DNA of 64,000 nt from an uncultured Planctomycetales bacterium (GTDB taxonomy: Bacteria > Planctomycetota > MHYJ01 > JACPRB01): the NCBI GenBank assembly GCA_964526305.1, contig CAZGKV010000003.1, forward strand, positions 3,451 through 67,450, given 5' to 3'. The stretch's first letter is position 1. The number at the start of each line of letters is the position of its first letter. Below, one piece after another: positions 18,663 to 57,676 of the stretch. The position numbers and the translations under genes are program-made. The notes below the pieces were generated by a model, which was not told the DNA's origin, searched no databases, and saw nothing but the letters and a program-made list of their open reading frames with translations.

Positions 18663-18690
18663 TCCCCAATCCTGGGGTATCCTTGGAGAC

Positions 18691-37000: not shown

Positions 37001-37183
37001 GCGGAGAAGGATTTCGCTCAACCGTACGGCTTCTCCAAGCCGTCGTCGTTCCTCGAGGCAGGATTCGAGCTCCTCGACCGTGACGGCCGCTTCCGCCAAG
37101 ATCGCGCGTTCGAACGCCTCTTCGTCGGCATCCCGGTAGGCGTTCCGAAGCAAGTATCGATACGGTTCAGGCAAGGAGACCAT
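34064..37183 (-). CDS. Ser/Thr protein kinase with TM segment and extensive C-terminal TPR array
   Basis: Kinase motifs (GGMGIVHEA, HRDLKPGN, DFG, SPE); TM helix IMAILGTVLLAAIIAGVGL; at least 12 TPR units. Paralog of the gene at 39055. Confidence 0.85.
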   Translation of the reverse strand: MVSLPEPYRYLLRNAYRDADEEAFERAILAEAAVTVEELESCLEERRRLGEAVRLSEILLRRGFLSPQHYLEILDRLHAPPTPLANRLGRYVLVREVARGGMGIVHEATDTDLRRRVALKVLRDGEADPETLRRLHREAAIAAQLRHPNIVAVHEVGVAPDGQGRPTHFIVMDFVEGETLADLVARGRTPRRELLRMLEEVSLGVAYAHARGVVHRDLKPGNVLVEQGGRVMLTDFGLAKAKSFATRLTRTHGLMGTPQYMSPEQVEGRTAETDSRSDVFSLGVMLYEILTGHPPFSGTTPPELFLRILKSDPVRPSLCGRDVSRDLEVICLKALCKERIRRYADAGGFAEDLARARRGEPILARPPSWSYRIKKRLARRPGIMAILGTVLLAAIIAGVGLREISRRRDLRLEQLRREMETKERDRRRFLDLQAQRIRPLERKIEETRQGFYIPDIDIRARLGPLERALEELEPVAADPAFARHPDVWTTLGTGWYVVGNLTRAEQALLRAAELVPTDARIHAYLGRVYLELAFSTLVGSPREAQERIKSSRRLNAQAQQSLRLAAGGWEGSTELERHLARAHLAMVDGTREGVQALCQEGMERFPSLLGVEEFQCLLAAADQNSPAAFELLNQALRRRPHYPWGRFLRGAMRAQQGESGRALADYSAALEVFPQYRPALLNRGTLLHGLQEWKRAEADFTEVLRMDGADCDVLYNRGIVRGDLGKFEEAIVDFTEVLRLRPEFVEAYVNRGIVRRRKGDLLGSLEDQTRALGVQPGHPTALLNRAGVRKEIRDFEAALTDYAEFLKVEPGHAGAHFARGEILGKTGNFRAAVAEYTSSLRSEPWKSATWNRRAHLRLASNDVAGGLADASQALLLDPHHPGARYARGFVLQAAGNHSSAIQEFTRALDAKPTMEESFTRRGSSRAAVGDRIGACADFADALRVFPTHAPAWYMRGNARRKLGDQLGALADYTQALVLKPRDPETWRNRGNARYSLGDLSGAVRDYERALECASPDWSYRAGTQKDLQRVRKKLRRRGN

Positions 37184-39054: not shown

Positions 39055-42000
39055 TTATCGATGGCCGGACTTGCGGTTCAGCTGATCCAACGCCTGGCGT
39101 GCTTGGCGATTCCGCGGATCCAAACTCAGGGCTCGGATGAAATCAGCCCGGGCCGCGTCCTCTTCCTCGAGGGCGATCCATACGAACCCCCGCCGGATCC
39201 AACCCTCCGCGAATCGAGGACGACGATTCACGGCTTCATTGCAATCCAGAAGCGCGCCTCGCGGATCCCCTATGGTCATCCGAACCCAGGCTCGCTCGAG
39301 CCAGGCCACATCGGCGCCGGAAGGATCGACCTCGATCGCGCGGTTCAAATCGAAAAGGGCTCCGGAGAAGTCCCGCCGCGAAGCCCGGACGTACCCGCGA
39401 AGAAACCACGCCTCTGCCGTACGCGGATTCCATGCCAAACTCTGATTCGCGTCCGTCCACGTACGGTCGAGATTGCCCTGTCGCTTCCATGTTCCCGCGC
39501 GCAGGCACCACATCCTGGCCGAACTCGGCCGAAGCCGAAGCGCCCCCGTGAAGTCTCGGAGGGCTCCGGAGAAGTCTCCCAATCCGCGTCGGACCAACCC
39601 CGCATCGTGATAGAGATCCGGATCGGCGGGATCGCTTTCGATCGCCTCCGCGAAGTCCGTGAGGGCGCCTCTGAGGTCTCCGAGCCTGACGCGGGTCCGC
39701 GCTCGGATGGCCAACGCGTACCGGTTCCGCGGTTGCCGGTGAAGCGCCAGGGTTGCATCGAGGAAGGCGCCCGCATGATCTTTGAGGAGTGCCCGAAGCC
39801 GGGCCCGCTTCGTATACGCCGGAACGTAGTCCGGATTGAATCGAAGAGCCTCCTCCAAGTCTTGAAGTGCCCCGATCGAATCGCCTCTCTCAAGACGCGC
39901 GCTGGCTCGACCGGCATACGCCATGCTGAACCCCGGACGGATGTGAAGAGCGGCGGTGAAATCGGATATCGCCTCCTCCCACCGACCCATTTGGTGATGG
40001 AGCACCCCTCGGCCCGTGTACGCCCAGTACAGACGAGGATCTTGCTCGATCGATTTTCCATAATCCGTCAGAGCCTCGCGATTCCGTCCTCCCTCGTGGT
40101 AGAGCTCGCCCCGGAAGAGGAAGAGCCACGGGGCATAGGGACGGATTTGAACCGCCTTGGTCAGATCCACAATCGGATCTCGATCGCTTCCGTGTCGGAG
40201 CATCGCCAGCGCGACCCAAAACTCCTCCACGCCCGGAGCATCGCCGAACGTCTCGACGCCTTCACGGGCCAGCCGGCAGTTCTGGTGGTGTTGGTCGTCC
40301 TCGGATTGGTGTATTCGGGCAAGGTGAAGTTCGATGGGAGTTGCCCCCTCCCACCCTCGGATCGCTCTGCGGAAATGGCGTGAAGCCTGCGCCAGCATCT
40401 TGTGAATCTCAGAGTTCGGCGACGGATCCTCGCTGTCTCGCAGGCGGGCAATGAGGGAGCGGTCCAAGTACACCCTTCCGAGATACGCCGCTACCCGGGC
40501 GTCGTCCGGAGACCGATGCGCCGCCTCCAGAAGGGCCTCTTCCGCTCGCGCGAGATCCCCCAAGACGTACCAACCCATCCCGATCGTCGCCCACACCTCG
40601 GAGTGGGAGCGAAACGCGGGATCCGCCGCGAAGGACTCGAACTCGAGAAGCGCCTTCTCCAATTCCTCAAGGTGAGCGCGGACATTCGCGTTCGGGATAT
40701 AGAACATCGTGCGCGACTTCTCGATCTTGGCTTGGAGACGCGGGATCCATTCTCCCTGAAACGCCAGGTATCGTCGCCGGCCCTCTTCTTCCGCCTCGAC
40801 GGTCCGAAGTCGCGCGCGGCTCTCCTCTCGAATCCCCTCGAGCGCAGGATCGGGTCGAATCCCGAGCGCCCGATCGCATTCGACCATGGCGCGGCCCCAC
40901 TCTCCCTCCGCAAAGGCGCGCTGCGCCGAGTCTCGACTTCGGTCGAACTCCCGCCGCCGCACGACCTGGCCCACGGTGACGGCCGTGGTGAAGGCCCCGG
41001 CCAGCGCCGCGATCGACGCCGCCACCAGCACGGGCTGCCGCGCCAGCTTTCGACGCAGGAGGAAGAACACGCTGGGCGGTCTCGCCCGGATCGGCTCCCC
41101 CCGGCGGAATCTCCCCAAGTCCTCCGCGAACTCCGTCGCATTCCGATACCGCCGGTTCTTCTCCTTCGACATCGCCTTGAGACAGATGATCTCCACGTCC
41201 CGCGCGATCGTCCGATTCAACGAAGACGGCCGCGCCGGTTCTTCCCTGACGATCTTCGTGTACACCTCCACCGCCGTCCTCCCTCGGAACGGCAGCGATC
41301 CCGTCAGGATCTCGTACAGCATCACGCCCAACGCGTGCACGTCCGTCCTCGCATCCACCTCCCTCACCCGCCCCTCCGCCTGCTCCGGCGCCATGTATTG
41401 CGGCGTCCCCAACAGCTCGTTCGTCCCCGTCAGCTTCGTCACGAAGCTCTCCGCCTTCGCCAGCCCGAAGTCCGTCAGCATCACCCTCCCCCCCCGCTCC
41501 ACCAACACGTTCGCCGGCTTCAGATCCCGGTGCACGATTCCCTTCTCGTGCGCATGCCCCACCGCCCTCGCCACCTCCTCCAGCATCCGCATCAGCTCCG
41601 GCTTCGCCGTCCTTCCTTCCCCCATCAACGCCGCCAGCGTCGGCCCCTCGATGTAGTCCATCGCGATGAAATGCGTCGGCTCCCCCTCCGGCCCCTCCGC
41701 CACCCCCACCTCGTGCACCGTCACGATGTTCGCATGTCTCAGTTGCGCCGCGATCGACGCCTCCCGGTGCAGCCGTCTCACCGTTTCCGGTGCCGCGTCC
41801 CCATGCCGCAGCACCTTCAGCGCCACCCGCCTCTTGAGCTCCGGATCGTCCGCCTCGTACACGATCCCCATCCCTCCCCGCGCGATTTCCCGCAGCAGCC
41901 GATACCGCCCCACCTTCCGCACCCCTGGCTCTTCCGGAGCGTGCAAGCGATCCAGGATCTCCAGATAGTGCCGGGGCGAGAGGAGTCCTTGGCGAAGCAA

Positions 42001-42174
42001 GACCTCGCCTATGCGCCCGGAGTCTCCCGGCCGACGACATTCTTCTTGCGCCGCCTCGATCTCCTCCGCCGACAGCCCCGCGATTTGCCGGGCCGCTTCG
42101 GCGAACTTTTCCACCGACGCGATTCCCCACGCGTCGGCCAGGAGGTTCCGATGGGGAGCTGGGAGCGAGACCAT
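39055..42174 (-). CDS. Ser/Thr protein kinase with TM segment and extensive C-terminal TPR array
   Basis: Start reassigned to ATG 42174 (MVSLPAPHRNLL..., homologous to the start of the 34064 paralog). The ORF track runs to 42240 and would overlap the divergent sigma gene. Kinase motifs and at least 12 TPR units. Confidence 0.85.
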   Translation of the reverse strand: MVSLPAPHRNLLADAWGIASVEKFAEAARQIAGLSAEEIEAAQEECRRPGDSGRIGEVLLRQGLLSPRHYLEILDRLHAPEEPGVRKVGRYRLLREIARGGMGIVYEADDPELKRRVALKVLRHGDAAPETVRRLHREASIAAQLRHANIVTVHEVGVAEGPEGEPTHFIAMDYIEGPTLAALMGEGRTAKPELMRMLEEVARAVGHAHEKGIVHRDLKPANVLVERGGRVMLTDFGLAKAESFVTKLTGTNELLGTPQYMAPEQAEGRVREVDARTDVHALGVMLYEILTGSLPFRGRTAVEVYTKIVREEPARPSSLNRTIARDVEIICLKAMSKEKNRRYRNATEFAEDLGRFRRGEPIRARPPSVFFLLRRKLARQPVLVAASIAALAGAFTTAVTVGQVVRRREFDRSRDSAQRAFAEGEWGRAMVECDRALGIRPDPALEGIREESRARLRTVEAEEEGRRRYLAFQGEWIPRLQAKIEKSRTMFYIPNANVRAHLEELEKALLEFESFAADPAFRSHSEVWATIGMGWYVLGDLARAEEALLEAAHRSPDDARVAAYLGRVYLDRSLIARLRDSEDPSPNSEIHKMLAQASRHFRRAIRGWEGATPIELHLARIHQSEDDQHHQNCRLAREGVETFGDAPGVEEFWVALAMLRHGSDRDPIVDLTKAVQIRPYAPWLFLFRGELYHEGGRNREALTDYGKSIEQDPRLYWAYTGRGVLHHQMGRWEEAISDFTAALHIRPGFSMAYAGRASARLERGDSIGALQDLEEALRFNPDYVPAYTKRARLRALLKDHAGAFLDATLALHRQPRNRYALAIRARTRVRLGDLRGALTDFAEAIESDPADPDLYHDAGLVRRGLGDFSGALRDFTGALRLRPSSARMWCLRAGTWKRQGNLDRTWTDANQSLAWNPRTAEAWFLRGYVRASRRDFSGALFDLNRAIEVDPSGADVAWLERAWVRMTIGDPRGALLDCNEAVNRRPRFAEGWIRRGFVWIALEEEDAARADFIRALSLDPRNRQARQALDQLNRKSGHR

Positions 42175-42220
42175 AGGATACGAATCAGTATACCTGGGTT
42201 CGGGATGATATGATTCGGAT

Positions 42221-42964
42221 GTGACGGGGCCGCTGGACACTTCGCTCGGGGGCGACGCGCGAGGATTCCCCTCGACCCACTGGAGCCTGCTGCGCGACGC
42301 CCGTAACCGCGACGCACCTGCCTACCGTCAGGCTTTGGAAGATTTGTGCCGGCGTTATTGGAAGCCCGCCTACTGCTTTGCCCGAGCCACTCGCGACCTC
42401 TCGAACGAGGAGGCGAAGGATGCGGTCCAGGAGTTCTTTGCGGAGTTGATCGAAGGGGACTTCTTTGCGCGATTCTCTCCGGAACGCGGTAGCTTTCGCG
42501 CCTATCTCAAGGGAGCGCTCACCCTCTTTCTCCTGGAGCGCCGGCGAAAGGCGGGAGCGCAGAAGCGCGGAGGCACGCGAAAGATTCTCGGCCTGGAGGA
42601 TTCCGACTTCACCCGCGCGGAGGCGGAGGCTCGCCGCGAAGGAGAATCGCCCGAGGCCGCCTTCGACCGGCAATGGGCCATGGACGCGATCGATCACGCC
42701 CTTCGCGATCTCGAGGAGGAGTACGGCCGATCGAATCGCGATTCCTGGTTCGCGGTCTTCCGCCGCTACGAGTGGGGAACGCCGGGCACCTATGCGGACT
42801 TGGCCCGAGAGTTCGGAATCGCGGAGTCGGAGGTCGGGTCCGCGCTCGCCCACGCGCGGCGGCGCTTCCGCGAGCTCTTCCTCGATCGCATCCGGGCCTA
42901 CACCGACAGCGAGGGGGAGGCCGCCACGGAATTGGCTTGGATTCTCTCGCTCCTGGGGCGATAA
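42221..42964 (+). CDS. ECF-like sigma-70 family sigma factor, Ser/Thr-kinase-associated type
   Basis: GTG start. Paralog of 25956-26669 (...LCRRYWKPAYCFARAT...EAKDAVQEFFAELIEGDF...TYADLAREFGIAESEVGSALAHARRRFRELF). Divergently adjacent to the kinase at 39055. Confidence 0.65.
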   Translation: MTGPLDTSLGGDARGFPSTHWSLLRDARNRDAPAYRQALEDLCRRYWKPAYCFARATRDLSNEEAKDAVQEFFAELIEGDFFARFSPERGSFRAYLKGALTLFLLERRRKAGAQKRGGTRKILGLEDSDFTRAEAEARREGESPEAAFDRQWAMDAIDHALRDLEEEYGRSNRDSWFAVFRRYEWGTPGTYADLAREFGIAESEVGSALAHARRRFRELFLDRIRAYTDSEGEAATELAWILSLLGR

Positions 42965-43030: not shown

Positions 43031-45514
43031 TTACCAGAATTTGAGCTTGCGGATCGCGCCGACGACTCCTCGCCGCACCGCGCTTGCGCCGCGCTTGGCG
43101 GCGTTCCAGGTCTCCGACGCCCGGTCGGCCGTCCAGGAACCCGCGGCCTTCATCCCCTGCCAAGTCGCCGCCAGGGCACGGTCGACGTAGGGGGTGATCT
43201 TTTCCGCGCCCCAGAGCATGACCGCGACCTGCGCGATCTCGAGCGCCCCGATGCCGACCCAACCTACCGGGCCGGCCGCAATGAGCGCGGGATAGACGGC
43301 TGCCCGGAGAGCGGCCTTGACGGGCATCATCGCCAGCATGGAAACCCCGAAGGACGTCGCATCCGTTGCGACGGCCCGGAGACTCTTCTGTCCGGAGGCG
43401 GCATGCATGATCGCCACTCCGGCATAGAGGGGCAGGGAGAAGCGCGTCACCGACGCCAGGGCGCCGCGCATCCCCAAGGCGGCTACGCCGCGGGTCGTGA
43501 CGTACTCGAGGCCCGCAAAAAGGCCGAACCCGCCGATGAAGGACGGTGAGAGCAGTCCCTTCGCGGCATCTCGGATACGGCCGGGATCGCCGTGCCAGAG
43601 GGCCTGCACCGTCTCCTTGAGCATCACCCCGCCGGCGAAGAATCCCATGCCGAGGGCACCGCGTCCCATCGCGCCCGCCGCCCGACCGAGCGCCGCTCGG
43701 TGGGGCTTCGCCGATGCGCCGCGGCCGTAGAGTTCCGGCCACCGGCTGCGGATCTCTTTCGCGAGCTCTGCGTCGCTTATCTTCGAAACCTCTTCGTGCC
43801 GGAATAGGGAGCGGAGTCCGGCCTTCTTGGCGAATGCGGCCTCGGCGCGGAAAGCCTCGACTTCACTTGCCGTCCGGCCGGTCTTGACGAATCCGTACGC
43901 ATGCGTGGCCTCGTGCACGAGCTCGACCGCAAGGCTCTTCGCCGAATTCTCGCGGACCAGGAAGACTTCGGCTCCCAGCGCCCCGGCCCCGCGGCTTCCG
44001 AGCTTCTTGGCATCGACCCAGTACACGCGGATTTCGCCCTGCCGTACCGCCTCGGCCAGATGGCGGGTGCCCGGACGATCGAGCCACCGGAGGACCTCGG
44101 CAAGCTTTTGGTCGGCGAAGGCGTCGGCCCGAGCGATCGGGGCACGTGTCCCCGTCCAGTTTTCCCACGTGCGACGGAGGCTGAGCCGGCGCCGGATCTT
44201 CGAAAGAAACGGCCGGTCCTTCGGACGCGAAGCCACTCCGTCGAACTCCGCCATTCCAAGTTCCTTGGCCTCGACGAGCTTGCCCTCGCCGTCGAAGAGT
44301 TCCATCTTGAAGCGGTCGTTGTAGCGCTTGTGTACTCGGCCGACCCGCACGATCCCCTCCGCCGTCTGGATCTCGGCGAGCTCGATCGTCGCTCCGTCGA
44401 CCTTGACTGTGCCCTCCGACGCGATGCGGACCTCGTACATCACGAAGGGATTGTCCAGGCCGCCCCACGTGTCTCCGCGGCCGGGCTCGTAGAAGTCCGC
44501 CACCCGGACTTGGGCCCCGACCGCCTTGAGCGGATCGGGAAAGTGGTTCCGCACGAACCGCTCGTAGGGGGTCCATTCCAATCCGAGCTCTCCGAGGAGC
44601 TTGCGGAACTCCGCCTCCGCCACCGTCGGGCTCCGAAGCGCATCGCGCTGGGCCTGAGTGAACTTGTGCGGCTCGATCGGCTTTCCCTTCGCCTCGAGGT
44701 GCTTGAGATACCGACCGAGGAAGCGCGCCTCGTCGTAGAGATCCTTCGGTCCCGACTGACCGCAGAACAACCGGACTTCGACCGTCGGCGGAGAGTCGGT
44801 CCACAAGTTCGTAAGGTTGACGTCCCGATAGCGCTGGCTGCCGAAGATCGGCTTCAGCGCGTCCAGGACGTCCTGATACTCGTACTTCCCTTTGGCCGCC
44901 GCCTTCCGGTCGATGGCCTCGATCACATCGATGAAGGCGTCCTGCTCGCCGCGTTCGAAGAGCGTCCGAGCGTTGTAGTGATCTCCCAGATCGTTGAAGA
45001 TCCCCTCGATGTAGGCCCGGTTGTGGATATCGACGAGGAGATTCCGCAGAAGAAGCGGGTTGTCCACGAAGATCTTCTTGTCGACGTGGATGTGTCCTCC
45101 GGTGCCCCACTTCGGATTGTCGGGGAGTTTCGTCTTGAGACCCACCGCCCACATCGCTTCATAGAGGGGGGTCATCTTCCGAACCACGTCGCTCAACTTC
45201 ATCGGGGGAGGCTGAACTTCGATGACTCCCGGATCCGTTCCGATGTTCCACTTCTGTCCTTCCCACTCGATCACATGGCCGTAGCCGTTATCTCTTCGCG
45301 AACCGGGCATGCGCGCCAGGAGCTCGTTGATGAGCGCGTCGCGCTTTGCCTCACGGGCCGTGCTGCTGACGCTCCAGTCGTCGCTGTAGATGTTGTCGTC
45401 CGTCGCCGTCGGTTCGAATCCGAAGATCAGAGCATCTTCCCGTACTTCCTGAGCTTGGGCGAGACCGAGGGATGCGACCGTGAGCAGGAGGATCCAAGAA
45501 GGGCGCCGCACCAT
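43031..45514 (-). CDS. large secreted protein, paralog A of a three-member family (shared C-terminal glycine-zipper-rich module; HExxH motif; N-terminal module with HIHVD motif)
   Basis: RBS AAGGAAG. Signal peptide MVRRPSWILLLTVASLGLAQAQE. HEATH in ...SLAVELVHEATHAYGF... The C-terminal ~250 aa (GAMGRGALGMGFFAGGVM..., SFIGGFGLFAGLEYV..., PVGWVGIGALEIAQVAVMLWGAEKITPYV..., ends AIRKLKFW) are conserved with paralogs B and C. Confidence 0.8.
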   Translation of the reverse strand: MVRRPSWILLLTVASLGLAQAQEVREDALIFGFEPTATDDNIYSDDWSVSSTAREAKRDALINELLARMPGSRRDNGYGHVIEWEGQKWNIGTDPGVIEVQPPPMKLSDVVRKMTPLYEAMWAVGLKTKLPDNPKWGTGGHIHVDKKIFVDNPLLLRNLLVDIHNRAYIEGIFNDLGDHYNARTLFERGEQDAFIDVIEAIDRKAAAKGKYEYQDVLDALKPIFGSQRYRDVNLTNLWTDSPPTVEVRLFCGQSGPKDLYDEARFLGRYLKHLEAKGKPIEPHKFTQAQRDALRSPTVAEAEFRKLLGELGLEWTPYERFVRNHFPDPLKAVGAQVRVADFYEPGRGDTWGGLDNPFVMYEVRIASEGTVKVDGATIELAEIQTAEGIVRVGRVHKRYNDRFKMELFDGEGKLVEAKELGMAEFDGVASRPKDRPFLSKIRRRLSLRRTWENWTGTRAPIARADAFADQKLAEVLRWLDRPGTRHLAEAVRQGEIRVYWVDAKKLGSRGAGALGAEVFLVRENSAKSLAVELVHEATHAYGFVKTGRTASEVEAFRAEAAFAKKAGLRSLFRHEEVSKISDAELAKEIRSRWPELYGRGASAKPHRAALGRAAGAMGRGALGMGFFAGGVMLKETVQALWHGDPGRIRDAAKGLLSPSFIGGFGLFAGLEYVTTRGVAALGMRGALASVTRFSLPLYAGVAIMHAASGQKSLRAVATDATSFGVSMLAMMPVKAALRAAVYPALIAAGPVGWVGIGALEIAQVAVMLWGAEKITPYVDRALAATWQGMKAAGSWTADRASETWNAAKRGASAVRRGVVGAIRKLKFW

Positions 45515-45577
45515 GGCTTTCTTCCTTGAGTTCTAGGCCAAGAGGACCGACCACCACACCTGCCGGTGCCCAGGGTA

Positions 45578-45594
45578 TTGCAACCGCCGTGCCA
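45578..45594 (-). promoter_or_regulatory. sigma-54 (-24/-12) promoter for paralog A
   Basis: Minus-strand sequence CTGGCACGGCGGTTGCAA, i.e. TGGCACG-N4-TTGCA, a full consensus match with correct GG/GC spacing. Lies about 54 nt upstream of the ATG of paralog A. Confidence 0.6.
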
Positions 45595-45702
45595 GGGACC
45601 GCCCGAGGGAAGCGCCTTCCGAAAACGCCCGCTTTCGGCCATCGTTGCCCGCCTCCGGGCGGCCGCCATGGCGCAATGCGTCACGCCGAAGGGAAACCGA
45701 AG

Positions 45703-45718
45703 TGGCACACCCGTTGCA
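45703..45718 (+). promoter_or_regulatory. sigma-54 (-24/-12) promoter for the 45795-52055 operon
   Basis: TGGCACACCCGTTGCA, i.e. TGGCAC-N5-TTGCA with GG and GC at consensus spacing. About 65 nt upstream of RBS/ATG 45795. Arranged divergently from the minus-strand promoter. Confidence 0.6.
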
Positions 45719-45794
45719 TTACCCCCGCTGCCCCCGGTTCCGGTGTCGTGGTGGTGCACGCCGCGGGGGAGTGGTGGATTGAGGAGAACGCCCC

Positions 45795-46688
45795 ATGTCC
45801 CGCGAACACGTATGGAAGTTCGGATGGATCGCCCCTGCTTTGCTCTTGGTCCTCCTGGCCGCACTGCTCTTGCGCCCCACGCAGGATTCCAAGGAACCCA
45901 AGCCGCGGAGCGCGACTTCGAAGATGCAGGTCCAGGAGACGACGCCTTCTCTGGAGAATCACGCTTCGCGGAACCCGGCATCCACGGAGCGGAAGCAGCC
46001 GCGACTTCGCGCCGAGGACACGGAAGAAGAGGATGAGTTGGAAGTCCACGAGAGGAGCGCCGCGGACGTCATCGCGGCCGATCCCTTGAAGTCCTCCCTC
46101 AAGACGGCTCTGACGCGGTTCGCCTCCCTTAAGTCCTACAGCTACTTGATCTCCGTGACGGTCTACGAGAACGGAAAGCCGATCCTCGAAACCAAGTCGG
46201 GCGGACAGGTAAAGGACCAGCAGATCGTGATGGGACTCACGGAAGTCCAGGGGGAAGTCTTCGAGGTGGCGAGCCGCGGTGCCGAATCGCGGATCCGCAG
46301 ACCGGGGGAGGAGTGGAGCGAGGCTGAGAACGGATGGTACGAGGCGGGAGAGGTCGACCCGCGGGCCGCCGAGATGGCCGAGGCGTGGGCCGATCCCGTC
46401 CTCGCATCCATGCCGCTCCGATCCGCCCCGACCGAAAACGTCGGCGGAGTGGACTGCAGCGCGATGACGCTCAATCTCGAAGGCGCGCTGCCGGGCGACG
46501 AGAACGTGAAGTCCGGCTCGGGCGCGAGCGCCGTCACCTTCGTCGTCGATCCCGACGGTCAGATCCGCCGGTGGCGACTGACGATGGAGATGAACCAGGA
46601 CGGAAAGAAAATGAAGACCGTCGCGGAGGCGGACTTCTCGGGTTTCGATGCTCCTTGGACCGTTCCTCTTCCGGAGTGGATGCAATGA
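45795..46688 (+). CDS. N-terminally membrane-anchored hypothetical protein, translationally coupled to paralog B
   Basis: RBS GAGGAG. TM helix WIAPALLLVLLAALLL followed by an acidic, low-complexity region and a ~180-aa C-terminal domain. Stop overlaps the start of the next gene (ATGA). Confidence 0.6.
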   Translation: MSREHVWKFGWIAPALLLVLLAALLLRPTQDSKEPKPRSATSKMQVQETTPSLENHASRNPASTERKQPRLRAEDTEEEDELEVHERSAADVIAADPLKSSLKTALTRFASLKSYSYLISVTVYENGKPILETKSGGQVKDQQIVMGLTEVQGEVFEVASRGAESRIRRPGEEWSEAENGWYEAGEVDPRAAEMAEAWADPVLASMPLRSAPTENVGGVDCSAMTLNLEGALPGDENVKSGSGASAVTFVVDPDGQIRRWRLTMEMNQDGKKMKTVAEADFSGFDAPWTVPLPEWMQ

Positions 46689-49528
46689 AACGCTGGACGC
46701 TTCTCTTCTGGCTGGTCCTCGCGGTCCCCGCGACCGCGCAGGACATCGAGAATCCGGAGTACCTGCGCCGAGCCGCGTGGGGATTGGCGAAGCAGAACCG
46801 GGCCAAGTCGCTCTACCTCTTCCTCGAGAACCAGTTCCCGACCTTTACGGGACTCGCGGAGGCGGCCGGACTTCCCGAGGCGCTGGACGGCGGGCTCTCG
46901 CTTCCGTCGTTCCGGAAGAGCTTCCACCAGAAGTTGAAGTCCTATAAGCCTTCCTCCGACCAACCCTCGGCCAAGGCGATGAAGGCGCTCTTCGACGCGC
47001 TCCACGGAGTCCTGACCGTCTTCCCGCTCCAGCCCCCGGCGCCCGGGGAGTCCGTCCGAGCGCTCGTACAGAACCGCGGCCCCCCGGAGGCGCTCCTCGA
47101 AAAGTTCTACAACGTCAGCGAGACCTATCTTGCGGGCTGGGACAAGCTCAAGACGATCTCGGTCAAGTCCGTTCCGGGAGAACTCGTGTGGTTCAACCCC
47201 GATCTCGCGATCCCCGAACTCGGGATCAAACCCGGCGTTCCTCTCACGGACGCGCAAAAGGCCCTCGTCCTGAAGTTCTTCTCGGTGCGGGTCACGAACG
47301 ACGCCGCCGCGAAGATCGGCGAAGCCTCCTATCCCTCCGATGTCGGACGCGCGGTGAACCCCCGCTCGGGCGTGCTCACGATCGTCGACGGCAACGACGG
47401 CAAGCTTCTCCCCGACCTCACCCTCAAGGGCACCGGAAGCAATTCGGATCCGGCCTCGACCTCCGAATGGTCGGGCAAGCTCGACGTCGGGGAAGCGATC
47501 TTCGACTCCGAGGTCTCTCTCTCCTTGATGCGAGAAGGGGTTCGAATCTACACGCCCGTGGCCGTCATCGCGGATCCGGCGAACCCCGCCAAGGGAGTCT
47601 CCGTCCGGGCCTCGATGACCTTCCTTCGCCATAGCCACATCTTGACGAACGGCTGGGGAAGCGTCACGCCGGAGGATGCGAAATTCCTCATCGAGAAGAT
47701 CCGGCAGAACGCGACCCTCGCCGAGGGACAGGAATTCGATCTGCGGGAATGGGCGAAGGACGTTCTCCCGAGGCTCGCGGGCCGAAACGCAGGGCTGATG
47801 TCGGGCCTCGGAGTCCGGCACGGCTCGGCGACCGACAGCAACATCGGCGTAGGCGAGCAAGTGGACTTCGGCGAGCCTTCCCTGGGAAACAAGCCATCGG
47901 AATCGCAAAAGGACTGGCACTGGAAGGCGCTCGAAAACATCACGAACGCGGCGAATCTCTCTCTTCCGGAAGGACAGAAGATCGACCTCGCCGCCTCCAA
48001 GGTCCTCTTCGAGGCCGAATTCTCCTCCTCGGTCGCTCGGGTCATCGACGAGGGGCTGCGACTCCGCGTCGGCGCCGAAAACCTCTCCCTCATGGACGAG
48101 TCCCACCGGAAGCGGTTGTACGAGGGGTACCTCGAGTCGCTCCGAGACTTGTCCGAGGCTCAGCTGCGGCAGGAAGTGGTCCGGCTGGGGCTCGAGAAGG
48201 TCGCCGTCGCCAAGACCCTCACGGCGGATCAGGCGCGTACGAAGATCCGGGACGCCTTCCGGAACGCGGACGTCTCGAAGCTCGAGCCCCTGCTCCGGCT
48301 TCTCGGGGTCGCGGAGTTCCGCGCCCGCGAGCTGGCCCTTCGGGGCGAGCCCCTCGCCAAGCTCCGCACGATGGCGCGGGATCGCGGGATCCGGAGTCCG
48401 GAAGGGCTCAACCGTTCTCAGCTCGCGCGGGAGATCGCCCTCTGGGGAGGAGCGGTTTCGCGACCGCGTTCGAACGAGCCGGAGCTCACGCGCCGGCTAC
48501 AGGGGGCCCTGAATTCCGCGATGCGGGCCGCCGACGGGATGGACCCCGCGCGGCGCGGCACGCGCGTCGAAGCGACGCTTCGCCGGCTCATGGCGGCGGA
48601 ACCCGGACTCTACTTCAACGTGAAGATCGCCGAACTCAACGGAAAGCGATTCGTATACGAGATCGGCGGACGGCGCGCGCTCCTCCCCGGAGGTCGCGTC
48701 ATCGCGGAGGCGGACGTTCTGAGACTGAAGCCCGGCCTGGCCCTGGAACTCGGGGCGGAGTTCGATTCCGCCAAGGTCGATCTCGCCTGGGAGATCAAGA
48801 GCTCGAGGCGGCCGATGCGTCCCTCGCAGGGAGAGCTCTATCGCTCCGTCTTCGGCCGCGCCCCGATCGAGATGCATCCGACGGAAGTTGCGGCCCGGCC
48901 GCGGGGCCGAAGTTCGGCTCGAGCGGCGATCGGTCAAGGAGCGGTCGGTCTCGGCATCTTTGCGGCCGGCTTCCTCGTGAAGGAAGCGGTTCAGGGGCTC
49001 GCCTCGGGCGACACCCAGCGGATCCGGAACGCGTTCCGTCACCTGAAGTCCCCCTGGTTCGCCGGGGGATTCGCGGTCTTTAGCGGCGTGGAATGGGCGG
49101 CGTCGAAGGCCTTGGGGGGGGCGAAAGGAGCGTGGGGCGCAGTCGGGCGCTTCGCGCTGCCCATCTACGCCGGCGTTTCGATTCTGCACCTCGTCCAGGG
49201 GAAGCGCGACCTCAAGTCGATCGCGACGGAGGCGACCTCCTTCGCCGTCTCCGCCCTGGCGATGCAGCCGGTGATGCACGCCATCCGCGGCGCGCTCTAT
49301 CCGGCCCTGGCCGCGGCCCCGCCGTGGGGCTGGGTCGGCATCGGTGCGATCGAGATCGCCAACGCCGCCGTGATGCTCTTCGGCGCGGAGAAGATCTCTC
49401 CGTATGTCGATCAGGCGCTCACGGCGACATGGAACGGAGCGAAAGCCGGTACCGCCTGGGTCAAGAAGGGCGCGACCGCTGTGGGACATAGGGTGATGGC
49501 CTCGGTTTCAAGACTCAAGTTTTGGTGA
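46685..49528 (+). CDS. large secreted protein, paralog B (shared C-terminal module; HExxH position degenerated to GAEFD; contains Rho-N-like helix-hairpin segment)
   Basis: Start taken at ATG 46685 (signal peptide MKRWTLLFWLVLAVPATAQD); the ORF track begins at 46334 inside the previous gene. C-terminal ...GQGAVGLGIFAAGFLVKEAVQG...PPWGWVGIGAIEIANAAVML...VSRLKFW. Where A and C have HEATH, B has ...LALELGAEFDSA... Confidence 0.8.
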   Translation: MKRWTLLFWLVLAVPATAQDIENPEYLRRAAWGLAKQNRAKSLYLFLENQFPTFTGLAEAAGLPEALDGGLSLPSFRKSFHQKLKSYKPSSDQPSAKAMKALFDALHGVLTVFPLQPPAPGESVRALVQNRGPPEALLEKFYNVSETYLAGWDKLKTISVKSVPGELVWFNPDLAIPELGIKPGVPLTDAQKALVLKFFSVRVTNDAAAKIGEASYPSDVGRAVNPRSGVLTIVDGNDGKLLPDLTLKGTGSNSDPASTSEWSGKLDVGEAIFDSEVSLSLMREGVRIYTPVAVIADPANPAKGVSVRASMTFLRHSHILTNGWGSVTPEDAKFLIEKIRQNATLAEGQEFDLREWAKDVLPRLAGRNAGLMSGLGVRHGSATDSNIGVGEQVDFGEPSLGNKPSESQKDWHWKALENITNAANLSLPEGQKIDLAASKVLFEAEFSSSVARVIDEGLRLRVGAENLSLMDESHRKRLYEGYLESLRDLSEAQLRQEVVRLGLEKVAVAKTLTADQARTKIRDAFRNADVSKLEPLLRLLGVAEFRARELALRGEPLAKLRTMARDRGIRSPEGLNRSQLAREIALWGGAVSRPRSNEPELTRRLQGALNSAMRAADGMDPARRGTRVEATLRRLMAAEPGLYFNVKIAELNGKRFVYEIGGRRALLPGGRVIAEADVLRLKPGLALELGAEFDSAKVDLAWEIKSSRRPMRPSQGELYRSVFGRAPIEMHPTEVAARPRGRSSARAAIGQGAVGLGIFAAGFLVKEAVQGLASGDTQRIRNAFRHLKSPWFAGGFAVFSGVEWAASKALGGAKGAWGAVGRFALPIYAGVSILHLVQGKRDLKSIATEATSFAVSALAMQPVMHAIRGALYPALAAAPPWGWVGIGAIEIANAAVMLFGAEKISPYVDQALTATWNGAKAGTAWVKKGATAVGHRVMASVSRLKFW

Positions 49529-49532
49529 TGCG

Positions 49533-52055
49533 ATGATGCTGAAGCTGCTCTTGGCGTTTCTGATCTCCACGGACCATCCGATCCTCTCGGACGCCCATCT
49601 GGAGGCGCTGATCCAGAACTACGGTCAGTCGATCCCGATCAAGACCGCCGAGGGATTGGGCGAGGCGCTCTACTGGGCGAACCTCGTCCAGAAGGACGCG
49701 ACGACCGTCGAGGTCACCGACAAGCTGATTCGGGACGTCGTGGCCGTCCGCCGATTTCACCAGCGCGCGCGCTACAACGTCGGCGACCGGCTGATCGTGC
49801 GCGCTTCGGAAGGGGGACTGTCCCCGCGCGCGGAGATCGCGACGGTGAATCCGGACGGGACGTACGACGTCATCGTGTGGGATAAGCTGAAGTCGTTCCT
49901 CCTTCCCAATACCAGCGCCGACGCCACCCGGGCGATGATCGACGAGGCGACGGGCGAGCTGGCCAAGCCGGGGAAGACGCAGGTCGAGGTCACCGACCCG
50001 GTAACCGGCGTGAAAAAGAAGGTTTGGATGGAGCGGCCGTGGCTGGAGCGTCCGAATCTTCGAACGGTCAAGATGACCCATACGGAGATCGCGGCGCTCA
50101 ACGGGCCGCCCAACATCGCGTTCCGCCAGCGGTACAACGTCTATGGCTACATCGTGGACGCCTTCACCCCCGGCTACGATCCGGTGCTCGAAAAGCGCCT
50201 CGCCAAGGCGGTGAAGGTCCTCGACCAGATGGTAGCGAAGGGCGAGCTCGACCTTCGCTGGCCGGAGAATCCCGCCGAGCAGCCGAAGTTCATGGAAAAG
50301 CTCCTCCGGGCCCAGCGGAAGCTCATCCGCACCGTGTGGTCCCAGAACGAGATGTCCTACCTCCGCGGGGACGAGGCCAGCAAGCGCTGGAACGAGGCGA
50401 TGTCCGATCCGACGCTCAAGGAGGGGTACTCGCACAAAGTCGGAGCTCAGCTCAAGGCGCGCGTCGGGGTTTGCAGCGATCAGACCGCCGGCATTACGTC
50501 GGTGCTTCGGGAAATCGGCCGTCGAGCGGGCTTCGAGATCCGTCCCGTGAGCGGCCGCACGCTCGACGGGGGAGGCCACGCCTTCGCCGTAATCCGGCTG
50601 GCGGACGGCAAGCTGCATCTGATCGATCCGTCCTGGCATTCGGTCTCGAGCCACACGAAGAACATCGCGTTGGAGTCGATCGATTTCGCGACCTTCGACA
50701 AGCGTTGGTGGTCCAACCGAGACCTCGGCTCCTTCGTCGAGACGTCGGTGGAGACGCCGCGGAAGGCCGGTCGCGGATTTACCGACACGCAAGATGCGCT
50801 CTTCCGCGCCACGGCCAAGAAGGGCCTGGGCGACGTCGCGGCTCGCCCGATCGAGCGGACGTGGATGGAAGAGATGCTGGAGCGGTACGAGGTCTACGAG
50901 CCCGCGGAGCCGAATGCGGTCCGCTGGCGCCGAGTGCCGGAATACGCCGTCTGGGCCGAGCCGATCACGGATTCGAAGATCGGCGAAGCGGTGGACATCA
51001 TGCGGGAACATGGCGCCGGCAAGTTGGCCGATCTGATCCTCCGCGGGGACATTCGGGTGTACTGGGTCGAGCCGCGAAGCCTGGGTTCGGCGGGGGCGAT
51101 CACCGACGGCCGGTTCATCTACGTGACTCGCGGGGCGACGGGCAAGAAGCTCGCCCTCGAGCTCGTCCACGAGGCGACGCATGCCGAAGGATTCCTCCGT
51201 ACGGGCCGTCCGGCGTCCGAGGTACAGGCCTTCCGCGCCGAGGCGGCGTTCGCCCAACGGGCCGGCGTGAAGTCCGTGTTCCGTCACGACAAGATTTCCC
51301 GGATGAGCGACGCCGAACTGGCGCGGGAGATCGAGCGGCGCTGGCCCGATCTGTACACGTCGGCCCGCGAGGGAGTTCCCGCCCGCGGTCACCGGGCTCG
51401 CATCGCAAGCGCCGCGAAGACCGTCGGTCGCGGGGCCATGGGCGCCGGGATCTTCGCCGCAGGGTTCCTCGTCAAGGAGACGATCCAGGGGATCTGGCAC
51501 GGAGACTGGGGCCGCATCAAGAGCGCGGTCCATGAGCTCAAGAGCCCGTGGTTCCTGGGCGGTTTCGCCGTCTTCAGCGGAGTGGAGTACGCCTCGGCGA
51601 AGATGCTCTCCGGAACCAAGGGGATGTGGGGCTCCGTCGGTCGCTTCGCCCTGCCGCTCTATGCGGGCGTCGCCCTCCTCCAGCTCGCCCAAGGCAAGCG
51701 CGACCTGAAGTCGATCGCGACGGAAGCGACGTCCTTCGCCGCTTCCGCCCTCGCGATGATGCCCGTGATGAACGCGATCCGGGGATCGCTCTATCCGGCC
51801 TTGGCCGCGGCTCCGCCGTGGGGCTGGGTCGGCATCGGCGCGATCGAAATCGCCAACGCGGCCGTGATGCTGTGGGGCGCCGAGAAAATGGCCCCCTACG
51901 TCGATAAGGCGATCACCGCGACCGTGAGCGCGACCAAGAAGGCCGCCTCGTGGGTCGCCGAAAAGGCTACGGGAGTCTGGCACGACACCGTGAGCGGATT
52001 CAACTCGGTGCGTCGCGGCGCGGTTTCGATGGCGCGGCGCCTCAAGTTCTGGTAA
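49533..52055 (+). CDS. large protein, paralog C (transglutaminase-like Cys/His/Asp module, HExxH motif, shared C-terminal module)
   Basis: Starts 5 nt after the stop of paralog B. GVCSDQTAGITSVLREIGRRAGFEIRPVSG...GGGHAFAVIRLADGKLHLIDPSW fits the transglutaminase-core/papain-like C...H...D signature. LELVHEATHAEGF. C-terminal ...GRGAMGAGIFAAGFLVKETIQG...PPWGWVGIGAIEIANAAVML...ARRLKFW. Confidence 0.8.
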   Translation: MMLKLLLAFLISTDHPILSDAHLEALIQNYGQSIPIKTAEGLGEALYWANLVQKDATTVEVTDKLIRDVVAVRRFHQRARYNVGDRLIVRASEGGLSPRAEIATVNPDGTYDVIVWDKLKSFLLPNTSADATRAMIDEATGELAKPGKTQVEVTDPVTGVKKKVWMERPWLERPNLRTVKMTHTEIAALNGPPNIAFRQRYNVYGYIVDAFTPGYDPVLEKRLAKAVKVLDQMVAKGELDLRWPENPAEQPKFMEKLLRAQRKLIRTVWSQNEMSYLRGDEASKRWNEAMSDPTLKEGYSHKVGAQLKARVGVCSDQTAGITSVLREIGRRAGFEIRPVSGRTLDGGGHAFAVIRLADGKLHLIDPSWHSVSSHTKNIALESIDFATFDKRWWSNRDLGSFVETSVETPRKAGRGFTDTQDALFRATAKKGLGDVAARPIERTWMEEMLERYEVYEPAEPNAVRWRRVPEYAVWAEPITDSKIGEAVDIMREHGAGKLADLILRGDIRVYWVEPRSLGSAGAITDGRFIYVTRGATGKKLALELVHEATHAEGFLRTGRPASEVQAFRAEAAFAQRAGVKSVFRHDKISRMSDAELAREIERRWPDLYTSAREGVPARGHRARIASAAKTVGRGAMGAGIFAAGFLVKETIQGIWHGDWGRIKSAVHELKSPWFLGGFAVFSGVEYASAKMLSGTKGMWGSVGRFALPLYAGVALLQLAQGKRDLKSIATEATSFAASALAMMPVMNAIRGSLYPALAAAPPWGWVGIGAIEIANAAVMLWGAEKMAPYVDKAITATVSATKKAASWVAEKATGVWHDTVSGFNSVRRGAVSMARRLKFW

Positions 52056-52110
52056 CGCAGATCCGATCCCTCAATCCGAGGCGGGGCCTGCTTGTGCGGG
52101 CCCCGCTCCC

Positions 52111-53589
52111 TTATTCGGGGCCGACGATCCCGTACTTCTCCATGCGCCGGCCGAAGGCTTTGCGGTCCAGGTTGAGGGAGCGCGCGGCCTTGGAGACGTT
52201 GCCTCCGGCCGCCGCGAGCGCATCTTGGATGCGCTTCCGCTCGAGCCCCTCGACCTCGCCGGGGAGACCGGCCTCCGGAACGTCGCGCCGGAGGACCCGG
52301 GGAGAGATCGCGTCGACGGAGAGGACGTCTCCGCAGAGAAGCGCCGCGCGCTTGAGTTCGTTCACCAGCTCGCGTACGTTCCCCGGCCACGGATAGGCCG
52401 CCAGCGTTCGCAAGGCCGCCTCCTCCACTCGAGGGGGTTTGCGACCGATGCTTTGGCACACCCTCCCGAGATGGTGTTCCACGAGTCGCGGCAGGTCCTC
52501 GAGGCGCCGGCGGAGCGGCGGCAGCTCGAGATGGATGACGTTCAGGCGGTGGAAGAGATCTTCGCGGAACTCTCCCTCGCGAATCATCGATTCCAGATCC
52601 TGATTCGTCGCGCTCACGATCCGGACGTCGACGCGGATGGGTCCGCGCCCGCCGACGGGGCGGATCTGTTGGTCCTCCAGGACCCGCAGGAGCTTGGCCT
52701 GCATCCCCGCGCTCATGTTCTCGACCTCGTCGAGAAAGAGCGTGCCGCCGTCCGTGATCTCGAAGAGCCCCTTCTTGTCCCCCGCCGCGCCGGTGAAGGC
52801 GCCTTTGACGTGGCCGAAGAGCTCGGATTCGAGGAGCGTCTCGTTGAACTCCGCGCAATTGACCGCGAGGAATGGGCCGTCGCGGCGCGGGCTGTGGAGA
52901 TGGATTTCCCGCGCGGTGAGTTCCTTCCCCGAACCGGTCTCTCCCTGGATCAGGACGGGGAAGTCGACCTGAGCGACGCGTTCGATCATCGCAAAGACCT
53001 GGCGCATCGCGGGCGAGGCGCCGACCATCGAGCCCATGCCGTGTTCGATTTCGCGGCGGGTTTCCCGGAGCTGTTCCGAGAGCGCGGCGACGCGGTTCTT
53101 GAGCTCCCATCTCTCGACGGCCGCGGCGAAGGGGGTGCGAGCGCGGGTGGCGAAGGCGACGCAGAGATCGAGGTCTTCGGAGAAAAAGCGCGCCCGATCC
53201 GCGGAGACGTCGAGGTAGATCACTCCCGCGGGGCCGGGGATCGGAACGCACAGAAGCGACTTGGCGTCCATGGACTGGATGCTCTGCCGATCGCGGAGAA
53301 GGGCCTCCTCGTGCGTGTCCGCGATGAGAGCCGGGCGGCCCGATTCCAAGACCTGCTCGACCACGCCGAAACTGATGCGGAGGGTCTCCCCCGCCAGGAG
53401 CGCCGGATCGATGGAGCGCGAGGCCACGAAGCGAGGGGCCCGGGCGGGATCGACGAGGATCATGAAGCCCCGTTCGGCCCGGACGGCGCTCACCAATTCC
53501 CCCAGAGCGGCGTCGAGCATCCGTTCCGGTTCGGGCCCCGCCTCGAGCATTCGGTCCAGGACTCCGAGGAGTCGGTCGCGAAGCTCCAT
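52111..53589 (-). CDS. sigma-54-dependent transcriptional activator (bEBP) with N-terminal GAF-like sensor, AAA+ sigma-54-interaction domain and C-terminal Fis-type HTH
   Basis: Start chosen at MELRDRLL (ATG 53589); the ORF track extends further, to 53766. Walker A GETGSGKE; GAFTGA sigma-54 contact motif; ESELFGH; arginine-finger region; C-terminal ...GNVSKAARSLNLDRKAFGRRMEKYGI. Confidence 0.8.
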   Translation of the reverse strand: MELRDRLLGVLDRMLEAGPEPERMLDAALGELVSAVRAERGFMILVDPARAPRFVASRSIDPALLAGETLRISFGVVEQVLESGRPALIADTHEEALLRDRQSIQSMDAKSLLCVPIPGPAGVIYLDVSADRARFFSEDLDLCVAFATRARTPFAAAVERWELKNRVAALSEQLRETRREIEHGMGSMVGASPAMRQVFAMIERVAQVDFPVLIQGETGSGKELTAREIHLHSPRRDGPFLAVNCAEFNETLLESELFGHVKGAFTGAAGDKKGLFEITDGGTLFLDEVENMSAGMQAKLLRVLEDQQIRPVGGRGPIRVDVRIVSATNQDLESMIREGEFREDLFHRLNVIHLELPPLRRRLEDLPRLVEHHLGRVCQSIGRKPPRVEEAALRTLAAYPWPGNVRELVNELKRAALLCGDVLSVDAISPRVLRRDVPEAGLPGEVEGLERKRIQDALAAAGGNVSKAARSLNLDRKAFGRRMEKYGIVGPE

Positions 53590-53725
53590 GGGGGTCGGAT
53601 CATAGCACCGGCCTCCGAGCCGCGCCACCCATAGAAGGCCCATATGGGGACCCATACGTCCGTACACTTTTGCATTGACACGGCCCGCGACGTTGGCACA
53701 ATAGCCTCCCCTCGGAGGGAATCGG

Positions 53726-56707: not shown

Positions 56708-56830
56708 CCGCCCGATTTCGGGCGCATCCGGTCGCCTCTGGGCAGACCACAGACTCGGCACGAGGGAGAGAGTCCTGGCCTCTCGATTGCTCCCGACAGG
56801 GCACCGGGACTCAATTCTTCGGAGGGACCT

Positions 56831-57676
56831 TTGAAGATCCGACTTGCCGTTCTGCTCGCGTTCGCTCTCGGAGGGACCGCGTTCGCCGCCGACGACCCCC
56901 CCTCCACCTTCGCTCGGGACTTTCTGAAGATTCTCCGAAATCCGCAGAATGAAGCCGGGGCCTTCCTCCAGTCCGATCTCCGGCGTCCGGACGCGCTGGT
57001 CGACTTCTTGACGTGGCTCGACCGTCGCGTGCAGGAGGACGCTCGCTTCTGGATGGTCCTCTCCGGGGATTGGTCGAACACCAAGGACCTCAAGGAGGTG
57101 TCCCGGCTCATCCTGGAGCGGGCCCAGCAGGAGGGATTGACGCTGCAGCGGGGATGGATTCCGCGACGCCTCGCCATTCACAAAGCCTCGCACAAGGGCG
57201 GCGTGGTAGAGATCAAGGTGTTGAACGCGTTCCGCCCCAGGACGGGAGCGTACGCCGACATCGTCGAGCGGGGGACGAAGCCTCAAGGCCAGGGGTACAT
57301 GCTCGTGGGAAGGGGATCCTACGAATCGCTCGAGATCCTTTTCGACGTCTACGGAACTCCTTCGGGCTCCAAGAAGATCGGCATCCCTTTCGTAGAGCGG
57401 GATGCCAGCACGGGGTGGAGACACGCCCTCGGGGTTCTGGACGACCAGACCAGCGCCGGGGAGTCGGCCTGGCTGGCGGACGCGCGCCTCTATCTCCGGG
57501 GACTTCCGTCGGCCACGACCTTGGCCTCTCTCTGGCGCATGGAAGGAGACACGAGGGGTTGGCACAAGATTCCCGTGTATTCCCAGAAGCGCGCCAACGC
57601 CGGGATCTACGGGACCGGTCAACTCCGATGGTGGACGTTCTGGCGATGGGTTCGCGTCGACCCGATTCCGTACTAG
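56831..57676 (+). CDS. secreted hypothetical protein
   Basis: TTG start preceded by RBS GGAGGG. Signal peptide MKIRLAVLLAFALGGTAFA. No recognisable motif. Confidence 0.55.
   Translation: MKIRLAVLLAFALGGTAFAADDPPSTFARDFLKILRNPQNEAGAFLQSDLRRPDALVDFLTWLDRRVQEDARFWMVLSGDWSNTKDLKEVSRLILERAQQEGLTLQRGWIPRRLAIHKASHKGGVVEIKVLNAFRPRTGAYADIVERGTKPQGQGYMLVGRGSYESLEILFDVYGTPSGSKKIGIPFVERDASTGWRHALGVLDDQTSAGESAWLADARLYLRGLPSATTLASLWRMEGDTRGWHKIPVYSQKRANAGIYGTGQLRWWTFWRWVRVDPIPY

Follow-up and report, generated by a model that had tools for sequence, protein, structure and literature searches.

Sigma-54 control of two divergent promoters from a common enhancer, through a bacterial enhancer-binding protein (bEBP), is already established. 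In E. coli and Salmonella, zraP and zraSR are transcribed from divergent sigma-54 promoters under the control of ZraR (PMC4987338). In Desulfovibrio vulgaris Hildenborough, DVU2106 binds palindromes and, together with IHF, synchronises the divergent orp1 and orp2 operons (PMC3897727). For NorR, a bEBP of the GAF type, several dyad enhancer sites build the active hexamer (PMC2831303), and assembly of the oligomer on the enhancer after GAF relief has been described (PMC2831303, PMC2941729). The enhancer-promoter distance usually quoted is 80-150 bp (PMC7910581). Here we describe a comparable arrangement in a 64-kb stretch of DNA (~64% GC; referred to as the window) from an uncultured Planctomycetales bacterium, which makes up nearly all of contig Ga0212128_10000056 of JGI metagenome 3300022563. 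The intergenic gap at 45515-45794 carries two outward-facing -24/-12 elements, PA and PB, with two palindromes, s1 and s2, between them. We regard it as likely, from the sequence, that the gap is a compact bidirectional sigma-54 control region, in which a neighbouring GAF activator binds both palindromes and activates both promoters by looping. The features in question are as follows.

45515-45794 (280 bp): intergenic gap between gene A (ATG at 45514) and the gene for a protein of 297 amino acids (aa; ATG at 45795).
45594 to 45579, minus strand: PA, sigma-54 -24/-12 element TGGCACGGCGGTTGCA, with GG at 45593-45592 and GC at 45581-45580, predicted to drive gene A.
45703-45718, plus strand: PB, sigma-54 -24/-12 element TGGCACACCCGTTGCA, with GG at 45704-45705 and GC at 45716-45717, predicted to drive the 45795-52055 operon.
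45627-45640: s1, GCCCGCTTTCGGCC, one mismatch to GCCCG-N4-CGGGC, its centre 40.5 nt from the GG of PA and 70.5 nt from that of PB.
45647-45660: s2, GCCCGCCTCCGGGC, an exact palindrome, its centre 60.5 nt from the GG of PA and 50.5 nt from that of PB.
52111-53589, minus strand: bEBP gene, with its ATG at 53589 and a product starting MELRD, with the domains GAF, Sigma54_activat, AAA_lid and HTH_8.

Like zraP/zraSR, this locus has back-to-back sigma-54 promoters across a short intergenic region, one bEBP (proposed in the present case) and an exported protein among its outputs. ZraR, however, belongs to the response regulators and, being encoded within one of the divergent operons, regulates itself, whereas the protein encoded here has a GAF sensor and no evident cognate histidine kinase. 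Its gene lies convergently downstream with an upstream region of its own, and the binding-site sequence is unrelated to that of zraSR. With orp1/orp2 the locus shares divergent sigma-54 operons, a local bEBP gene, palindromic sites and poorly characterised targets. The orp activator has its sites at -131 and -88, and IHF sites separate this enhancer from the promoters; here the centres fall between ~-65 and ~-95, with no visible IHF-like sequence. Moreover, in both zraSR and the orp cluster (DVU2106) the activator gene is inside the divergent unit, which is not so here. The 52111-53589 protein follows the same order as NorR, NifA and FhlA, namely GAF, AAA+ with GAFTGA, and a Fis-type helix-turn-helix (HTH), but the site sequence differs. 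It may be noted that the FhlA site CATTTCGTACGAAATG (PMC4987338), a 16-bp 7-2-7 palindrome, has the same geometry as the palindrome CGCCCGATTTCGGGCG described below. The Nla-type systems of Myxococcus xanthus are alike in belonging to a GC-rich genome with an abundance of Ser/Thr kinases, with bEBP repeat sites upstream of TGGCACG-N4-TTGC(T/A) (PMC7910581). The Nla28 half-site, CT(C/G)CG(C/G)AG, differs from the sites found here, and many of the M. xanthus sigma-54 promoters are intragenic. The regulatory logic is that of the textbook, and so the understanding of transcription is unchanged. What is unusual is the short enhancer-promoter distance and the rare, uncharacterised target proteins.

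The gap is a real divergent intergenic region, bounded by the starts of gene A on the minus strand and of the plus operon, and the original prediction had placed two divergent sigma-54 promoters in it. Sites were scored against TGGCACG-N4-TTGCW, the consensus quoted in PMC7910581, the GG and the GC being obligatory. PA had no mismatch, and its flanks also agreed with the extended consensus, with a C before TGG and an A three nt past TTGCA. The exact consensus match predicted for this element was borne out, but with its flanking letters (CTGGCACGGCGGTTGCAA) it occupies 45578-45595 of the minus strand, one nucleotide more than the 45578-45594 given earlier. PB was located exactly where it had been placed, at 45703-45718. 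It had one mismatch, an A for the G after CAC; this G and the flanking Y are the positions where PB does not follow the extended consensus. In both elements the GG and the GC are separated by exactly 10 nt, in the form TGGCAC-N5-TTGC(A/T). The two GGs are 111 bp apart, and the elements point outwards, each at its own gene.

PA and PB were the only exact matches to TGGCAC-N5-TTGCW in the window, compared with 0.00 in 100 dinucleotide shuffles, and relaxation by one mismatch brought no extra site in the 64 kb. For sites with at most one mismatch to the scored consensus, Markov shuffles gave an expectation of 0.19 per 64 kb. Their frequency in real metagenomic DNA of unrelated origin (766 kb) was 0.5 per 64 kb, with no exact match. 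The remaining sigma-54-like sites of the window had 2-3 mismatches and were at chance frequency (19 observed vs 19.8 expected). For the 280-bp gap, ~0.002 sites with at most one mismatch were expected and two were observed. Hence, two correctly oriented sites are far beyond chance, as had been claimed originally.

The distance from the C of the -12 element to the start codon is 66 nt for gene A and 78 nt for the plus operon. Taking this C as -12, transcription is predicted to start at ~45568 (PA) and ~45729 (PB), with 5' leaders of ~54 and ~66 nt, respectively; the 50-70 nt from the start codons given in the original prediction was roughly right. Shine-Dalgarno sequences precede both ATGs (AAGGAAG for gene A, GAGGAG for the plus operon). 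Neither a sigma-70-type -35/-10 match nor a terminator-like site was found in the gap region. PA and PB together form the arms of a 22-nt inverted repeat, TGGCAC-N5-TTGCA(A/T)TACCC, in which the N5 differs (GGCGG vs ACCCG). Conserved contacts with differing spacers would be the pattern expected under selection on the sigma-54 contacts. The match to the consensus, the orientation, the distance from the start codons, the Shine-Dalgarno sequences and the adjacent bEBP gene all favour the two promoters, and PA and PB are very likely to be genuine.

Other kinds of control were considered for the same region. An extracytoplasmic function (ECF)-type promoter for the adjacent ECF sigma gene (42221-42964) could be drawn from GGAAAC and CGTT near PB, and was rejected because the spacer is only 13 nt. 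A riboswitch or structured leader was likewise rejected, since no Rfam RNA family matched in the gap region and the leaders of PA and PB were less stable in folding than shuffles. Both leaders, at 45547-45560 (minus) and 45741-45777 (plus), contain GGTGT(C)GTGGTGGT-like runs, with one copy of GTGGTGG in the leader of PA and two in that of PB. These runs could have been left by an inverted duplication that took in promoter and leader, or could be a motif acting at the RNA level.

The palindromes s1 and s2 are each 14 bp long, of the form GCCCG-N4-CGGGC, and exactly 20 bp apart. A repeat search gave GCCCGCTTTCGG and GCCCGCCTCCGG as a direct repeat with the same 20-bp offset, each lying inside one of the two palindromes. 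Such a spacing places them on the same side of the helix. The distances from PB to s1 and s2 are 10 bp, or one helical turn, beyond those from PA, so that the enhancer would present the same face to both promoters. Counted from the predicted starts, the centres of s1 and s2 are at ~-65 and ~-85 for PA and ~-75 and ~-95 for PB. The palindrome cluster at 45647-45673, which includes s2, was absent from the list of elements in the original prediction. The s1/s2 pair is probably a shared, two-site activator-binding enhancer of PA and PB, a reading supported by the comparison with two further promoters given next.

The same arrangement was found at two more places, one of them in the window and the other in L003, another contig of the same metagenome that encodes P0002, the closest homologue of gene A (59% identical). 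In a test blind to promoter positions, pairs were defined as two GCCCG-N4-CGGGC-like sites with at most three mismatches in total and exactly 20 bp apart. Only those at 45627 and 56710 occurred in the window (0.08 expected), plus one at 9952 in L003. Other spacings of 15-25 bp gave no pairs except one at 23 bp. Each of the three 20-bp pairs has a sigma-54-like element downstream of it, and the centre of the proximal site is 39.5-40.5 nt away from the -24 GG of that element. The features of the two further places are given below.

56776-56791, plus strand: P3, TGGCCTCTCGATTGCT, a sigma-54-like element with three mismatches, 40 nt upstream of the TTG start at 56831.
56710-56723: s3, GCCCGATTTCGGGC, within the 16-nt palindrome CGCCCGATTTCGGGCG (56709-56724), its centre 60.5 nt from the GG of P3.
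56730-56743: s4, GGTCGCCTCTGGGC, a weaker site exactly 20 bp downstream of s3, its centre 40.5 nt from the GG of P3.
56831-57676, plus strand: gene downstream of P3, for a 281-aa secreted protein with a signal peptide and of no known family.
L003 10017-10032: sigma-54-like element CGGCACGGGAATTGCC, directly upstream of the P0002 gene.
L003 9972-9985: proximal site, GCCCGATTTCGGGC, its centre 39.5 nt from the GG.
L003 9952-9965: distal site, GCCCGCAATCGACC, its centre 59.5 nt from the GG.

s3 sits in the gap after a kinase gene, and the TTG start at 56831 has the Shine-Dalgarno sequence GGAGGGA. An identical 17-mer, CCGCCCGATTTCGGGCG, is common to L003 and P3. When the enhancer regions were compared with the -24 GG as the anchor, PA and L003 agreed at 30/50 positions (p<0.0002 vs shuffles), P3 and L003 at 24/50 (p=0.007) and PA and P3 at 22/50 (p=0.025). 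Downstream of -12 the likeness among PA, P3 and L003 was not significant. An unanchored local alignment of the regions upstream of PA and of the L003 element was not significant either (p ~0.11), only the -24-anchored comparison being so. As a promoter P3 is the weaker candidate, backed by the enhancer architecture upstream of it. The presence of the same two-site enhancer at the same distance at P3 and L003 suggests a small regulon of secreted proteins around the activator gene. Exact copies of GCCCG-N4-CGGGC number three in the window (s2, a copy in a coding region at 39791, and 56710-56723). It was also seen that GGGCACCGG follows TTGC at a distance of exactly 8 nt in both PA and P3, around the place where transcription is predicted to start.

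The original prediction had listed two dyads as candidate activator sites.

45608-45620: dyad 1, GGAAGCGCCTTCC, a perfect 5-3-5 dyad between s1 and PA, of unsupported function.
45619-45638: dyad 2, CCGAAA-N8-TTTCGG, with perfect arms of 6 bp, or of 9 bp if one mismatch is allowed; the right half is part of s1.

Dyad 1 was present as described. It is single-copy in the window, and no counterpart occurs at the equivalent position of P3 or L003; it was rejected as an enhancer because it does not recur. Dyad 2 was also present, but from 45619 instead of 45621. The proposal that these dyads are activator sites gains from the overlap of dyad 2 with the recurrent palindrome s1, but finds no support in dyad 1. 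The 108 bp between the promoters contained six dyads with arms of at least 5, compared with 2.5 in shuffles (p ~0.075), though as many were found in only 0.5% of real 108-bp windows of the contig. Taken singly, the two listed dyads were statistically unremarkable.

Among the open reading frames (ORFs) of the window that were scanned, 52111-53589 was the single one encoding a bEBP. Its product matched Sigma54_activat (PF00158) with an E-value of 4.7e-70, and Walker A (GETGSGKE), Walker B (LFLDEVE) and GAFTGA are all intact. The best NCBIfam matches were NifA (362.8, cut-off 528.85) and NorR (319.9, cut-off 476). Since these scores are far below the equivalog cut-offs, the protein is not an orthologue of either, although the architecture is alike. 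Compared with the GTDB species genomes, it gave generic AAA+ matches only, at 35-54% identity, in unrelated phyla and without synteny. By its domains and motifs, then, it is classed as a GAF-type bEBP and not as an orthologue of a named regulator. The gene stands outside both divergent units. Its position is after the PB operon and before P3, and it is preceded by an upstream region of its own (53590-53725). In this gap between the bEBP gene and the kinase gene, TTGGCACAATAGCC near 53693 was rejected as a sigma-54 site, there being no GC at the right spacing. The bEBP gene and the plus operon converge, with 56 bp between the stop codon of the former and that of the last operon gene. The convergent gap (52056-52110) holds a GC-rich hairpin, GGCGGGGCC...GGGCCCCGC, at ~52070-52110, which is probably a bidirectional terminator without a T-run.

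Under the model that we favour, PA would transcribe gene A leftwards and PB would transcribe the 45795-52055 operon rightwards. s1 and s2 would bind two dimers of a bEBP, most likely the GAF-AAA+-HTH protein of 52111-53589. On receipt of a signal by the GAF domain, the bEBP would oligomerise on the s1/s2 enhancer, in the manner described for NorR, and the oligomer could then reach either closed complex via DNA looping. ATP hydrolysis through the GAFTGA loop would open the promoter. Gene A and the operon would thereby be switched on together, and P3 and the L003 gene may be further targets. Such tight, signal-gated sigma-54 co-expression suggests conditional deployment of the three secreted paralogues encoded here. 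More tentatively, the locus may be an unusually compact cassette, in which only 40-70 bp separate the site centres from the -24 elements and an IHF-type site is absent, belonging to a new GAF-activator regulon that includes P3 and L003. It is possible, at the same tentative level, that this regulon is dedicated to rare secreted modular proteins, which combine a glutamine synthetase (GS)-like amidoligase or an HExxH motif with a C-terminal domain ending in LKFW. The locus might then represent a signal-induced effector or envelope-remodelling system of an uncultivated lineage, a suggestion that we hold just as loosely.

A number of observations weigh against this model. The palindromes were assigned to the 52111-53589 bEBP by gene proximity only, and no rpoN gene was found in the 64-kb window. 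The distance of the predicted enhancer from the promoters falls short of the customary 80-150 bp (PMC7910581), and nothing resembling an AT-rich IHF site is visible in between. Single GCCCG-N4-CGGGC sites with at most one mismatch are not enriched in the window (20 found vs 15.9 expected). With its three mismatches P3 alone is at chance level, and s3 starts 3 nt past a stop codon. The L003 element leaves a leader of ~3 nt before the ATG at 10046, which matches the start of A, or alternatively falls within the called ORF starting at 10001. At the homologous loci L007, L153, L154 and L155 no sigma-54 element was found. The enhancer comparisons were devised after the data had been seen. The perfect 16-mer CGCCCGATTTCGGGCG occurs in at least 120 unrelated metagenome contigs, with a sigma-54-like element within 25-80 nt in 3 of the 120 listed (a scan used as a background estimate only), and in L152 it is plainly a terminator stem. 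Several of these points fit an alternative that we consider unlikely, in which the -24/-12 elements are real and the palindromes serve another bEBP or a repressor or architectural protein, or are non-regulatory GC hairpins, the true enhancer being elsewhere, for example inside the flanking coding regions. The assignment by proximity, the unusual closeness to the promoters, the position of s3, the terminator stem in L152 and the single-site counts can all be cited for it. However, a 20-bp pair at a fixed 40/60 nt from the -24 GG was found at three promoters and nowhere else in 86 kb, and the bEBP gene lies between two of the three putative targets. The flanking genes diverge both at the 45.6-kb region and at L003, so that there is nothing there for a hairpin to terminate.

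The two elements may also be looked upon simply as the arms of the 22-nt inverted repeat, having some other role. They could be bound by a dimeric regulator as its operator, serve as a recombination site or mark the ends of a small mobile element. The arms do run past the sigma-54 core (TTGCAWTACCC), with 82% complementarity over 22 nt and 108 nt between them. Their identity is nevertheless concentrated at the TGGCAC and TTGCA contacts, the N5 differs, and single -24/-12-like copies precede homologues in L003 and in L156. As no transposase or recombinase gene lies near the gap and a bEBP gene is adjacent to it, we find this explanation highly improbable. Scarcely any weight can be given to the proposal that PA and PB are chance matches in GC-rich DNA, or one working promoter and one inactive sigma-54 binding site. 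In its favour, non-productive sigma-54 binding sites are common in E. coli (PMC4591121), and PB deviates from the extended consensus. The chance expectation given above argues against it, both elements being intergenic and correctly oriented, and no other promoter is recognisable for either gene set. An otherwise opaque locus thereby gains a precise and testable handle: two promoters, the 34-bp stretch of the putative enhancer and a candidate for the activator. Given a full genome, the enhancer motif could serve to enumerate the rest of the regulon, and the short enhancer-promoter spacing, if true, would be a useful natural example for the constraints on looping.

The interest of the locus comes mainly from its uncharacterised targets, which are listed here.

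43031-45514, minus strand: gene A, 827 aa, with signal peptide MVRRPSWILLLTVASLGLAQAQ, a HEATH motif and a C-terminal domain ending LKFW.
45795-46688, plus strand: first gene of the plus operon, for a 297-aa protein of no known family whose N-terminus carries a membrane anchor.
46685-49528, plus strand: paralogue B, 947 aa, with a signal peptide and the common C-terminal domain; its start overlaps the upstream stop (ATGA).
49533-52055, plus strand: paralogue C, 840 aa; in its C-terminal 400 aa, which contain the HEATH motif, it has 49% identity to A.

The three genes of the plus operon (45795-52055) are tightly packed. A longer, mechanically derived ORF from 46334 was ruled out as paralogue B, among other things by the JGI gene call. 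A, B and C have in common a Gly/Ala-rich helical C-terminal domain of ~230 aa ending LKFW, and the HEATH (HExxH) motif is present in A and C. Pfam and NCBIfam gave no match for A, the 297-aa protein, B or C, except for a sub-threshold DUF2126 'amidoligase' match in A. The AlphaFold2 (AF2) model of A was of moderate confidence (mean pLDDT 59.8). With Foldseek, its N-terminal domain gave weak, mutually consistent matches to glutamine synthetase and gamma-glutamylmethylamide synthetase (probability up to 0.96, E 0.05). A GS-like amidoligase fold is weakly suggested by this model, in agreement with the DUF2126 match, and is to be taken as a lead and not a finding.

A sequence search of the PDB gave no match, and nothing was found when 185,579 GTDB species genomes were scanned with the paralogue alignment. 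Word-indexed searches of 5.8 billion clusters returned four proteins for A, two for the 297-aa protein and five for C, and a profile search of 1.84 billion representatives returned 301 proteins. The latter indicated that the N-terminal and C-terminal domains occur independently, the C-terminal domain ending proteins with varied N-termini. Partners of the LKFW-type domain include, for example, a trehalose-synthase-like GT1 and HEAT repeats. Besides the contig described here, one of 133.7 kb carries these genes. For the 297-aa gene an orthologue, P0006 (58% identity), was found on an ENA contig of sample ERZ27297570, with 200 bp of sequence upstream of it. In L156, which comes from a different assembly (71% GC) and a different organism, the sigma-54-like TGGCTCCGTCATTGCA lies 35 nt before the ATG of the homologue. 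Among the homologous loci that were read, a sigma-54-like element stands directly upstream of the homologues in L003 and L156, but not in L007, L153, L154 or L155; sigma-54 control would therefore recur in the family without being universal. In L007, from another metagenome, 7919-13233 encodes three tandem paralogues of the N-terminal domain of A, starting MGG(N/S)(A/F)SGISGG, without the C-terminal domain and without a sigma-54-like element. Three tandem family members also occur in L155, a locus of a Planctomycetes metagenome-assembled genome, with a kinase and an ECF sigma/FecR pair nearby. Elsewhere in L003, TGGCACGCCGTTCGCT (17995-18010) is one mismatch from the sigma-54 consensus and lies 36 nt upstream of a gene for a Peptidase_C70 (AvrRpt2-like cysteine protease); no clear GCCCG-N4-CGGGC pair was seen upstream of it.

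Among the products of the window as a whole are many Ser/Thr kinases, with TPR, WD40 or FGE-sulfatase domains fused to them, as well as VgrG and a protein with RCC1 repeats. The kinase genes are located as follows.

9707-12316, 14480-16378, 22613-25912, 34064-37183, 39055-42240 and 53726-56707: Ser/Thr kinase genes.

These six genes in 64 kb encode kinases fused to FGE-sulfatase, WD40, SecDF-P1-head or TPR, and two of them lie on either side of the block formed by the predicted sigma-54 locus and the bEBP gene. The ECF-type sigma gene at 42221-42964 (TIGR02937, above the cut-off) lies between a Ser/Thr kinase gene and gene A and is convergent with A. About 25 kb from the sigma-54 gap, at 16452-19923, a TPR/M23-peptidase gene comes after one for VgrG (Phage_GPD), an arrangement that looks like a type VI secretion spike-effector pair.

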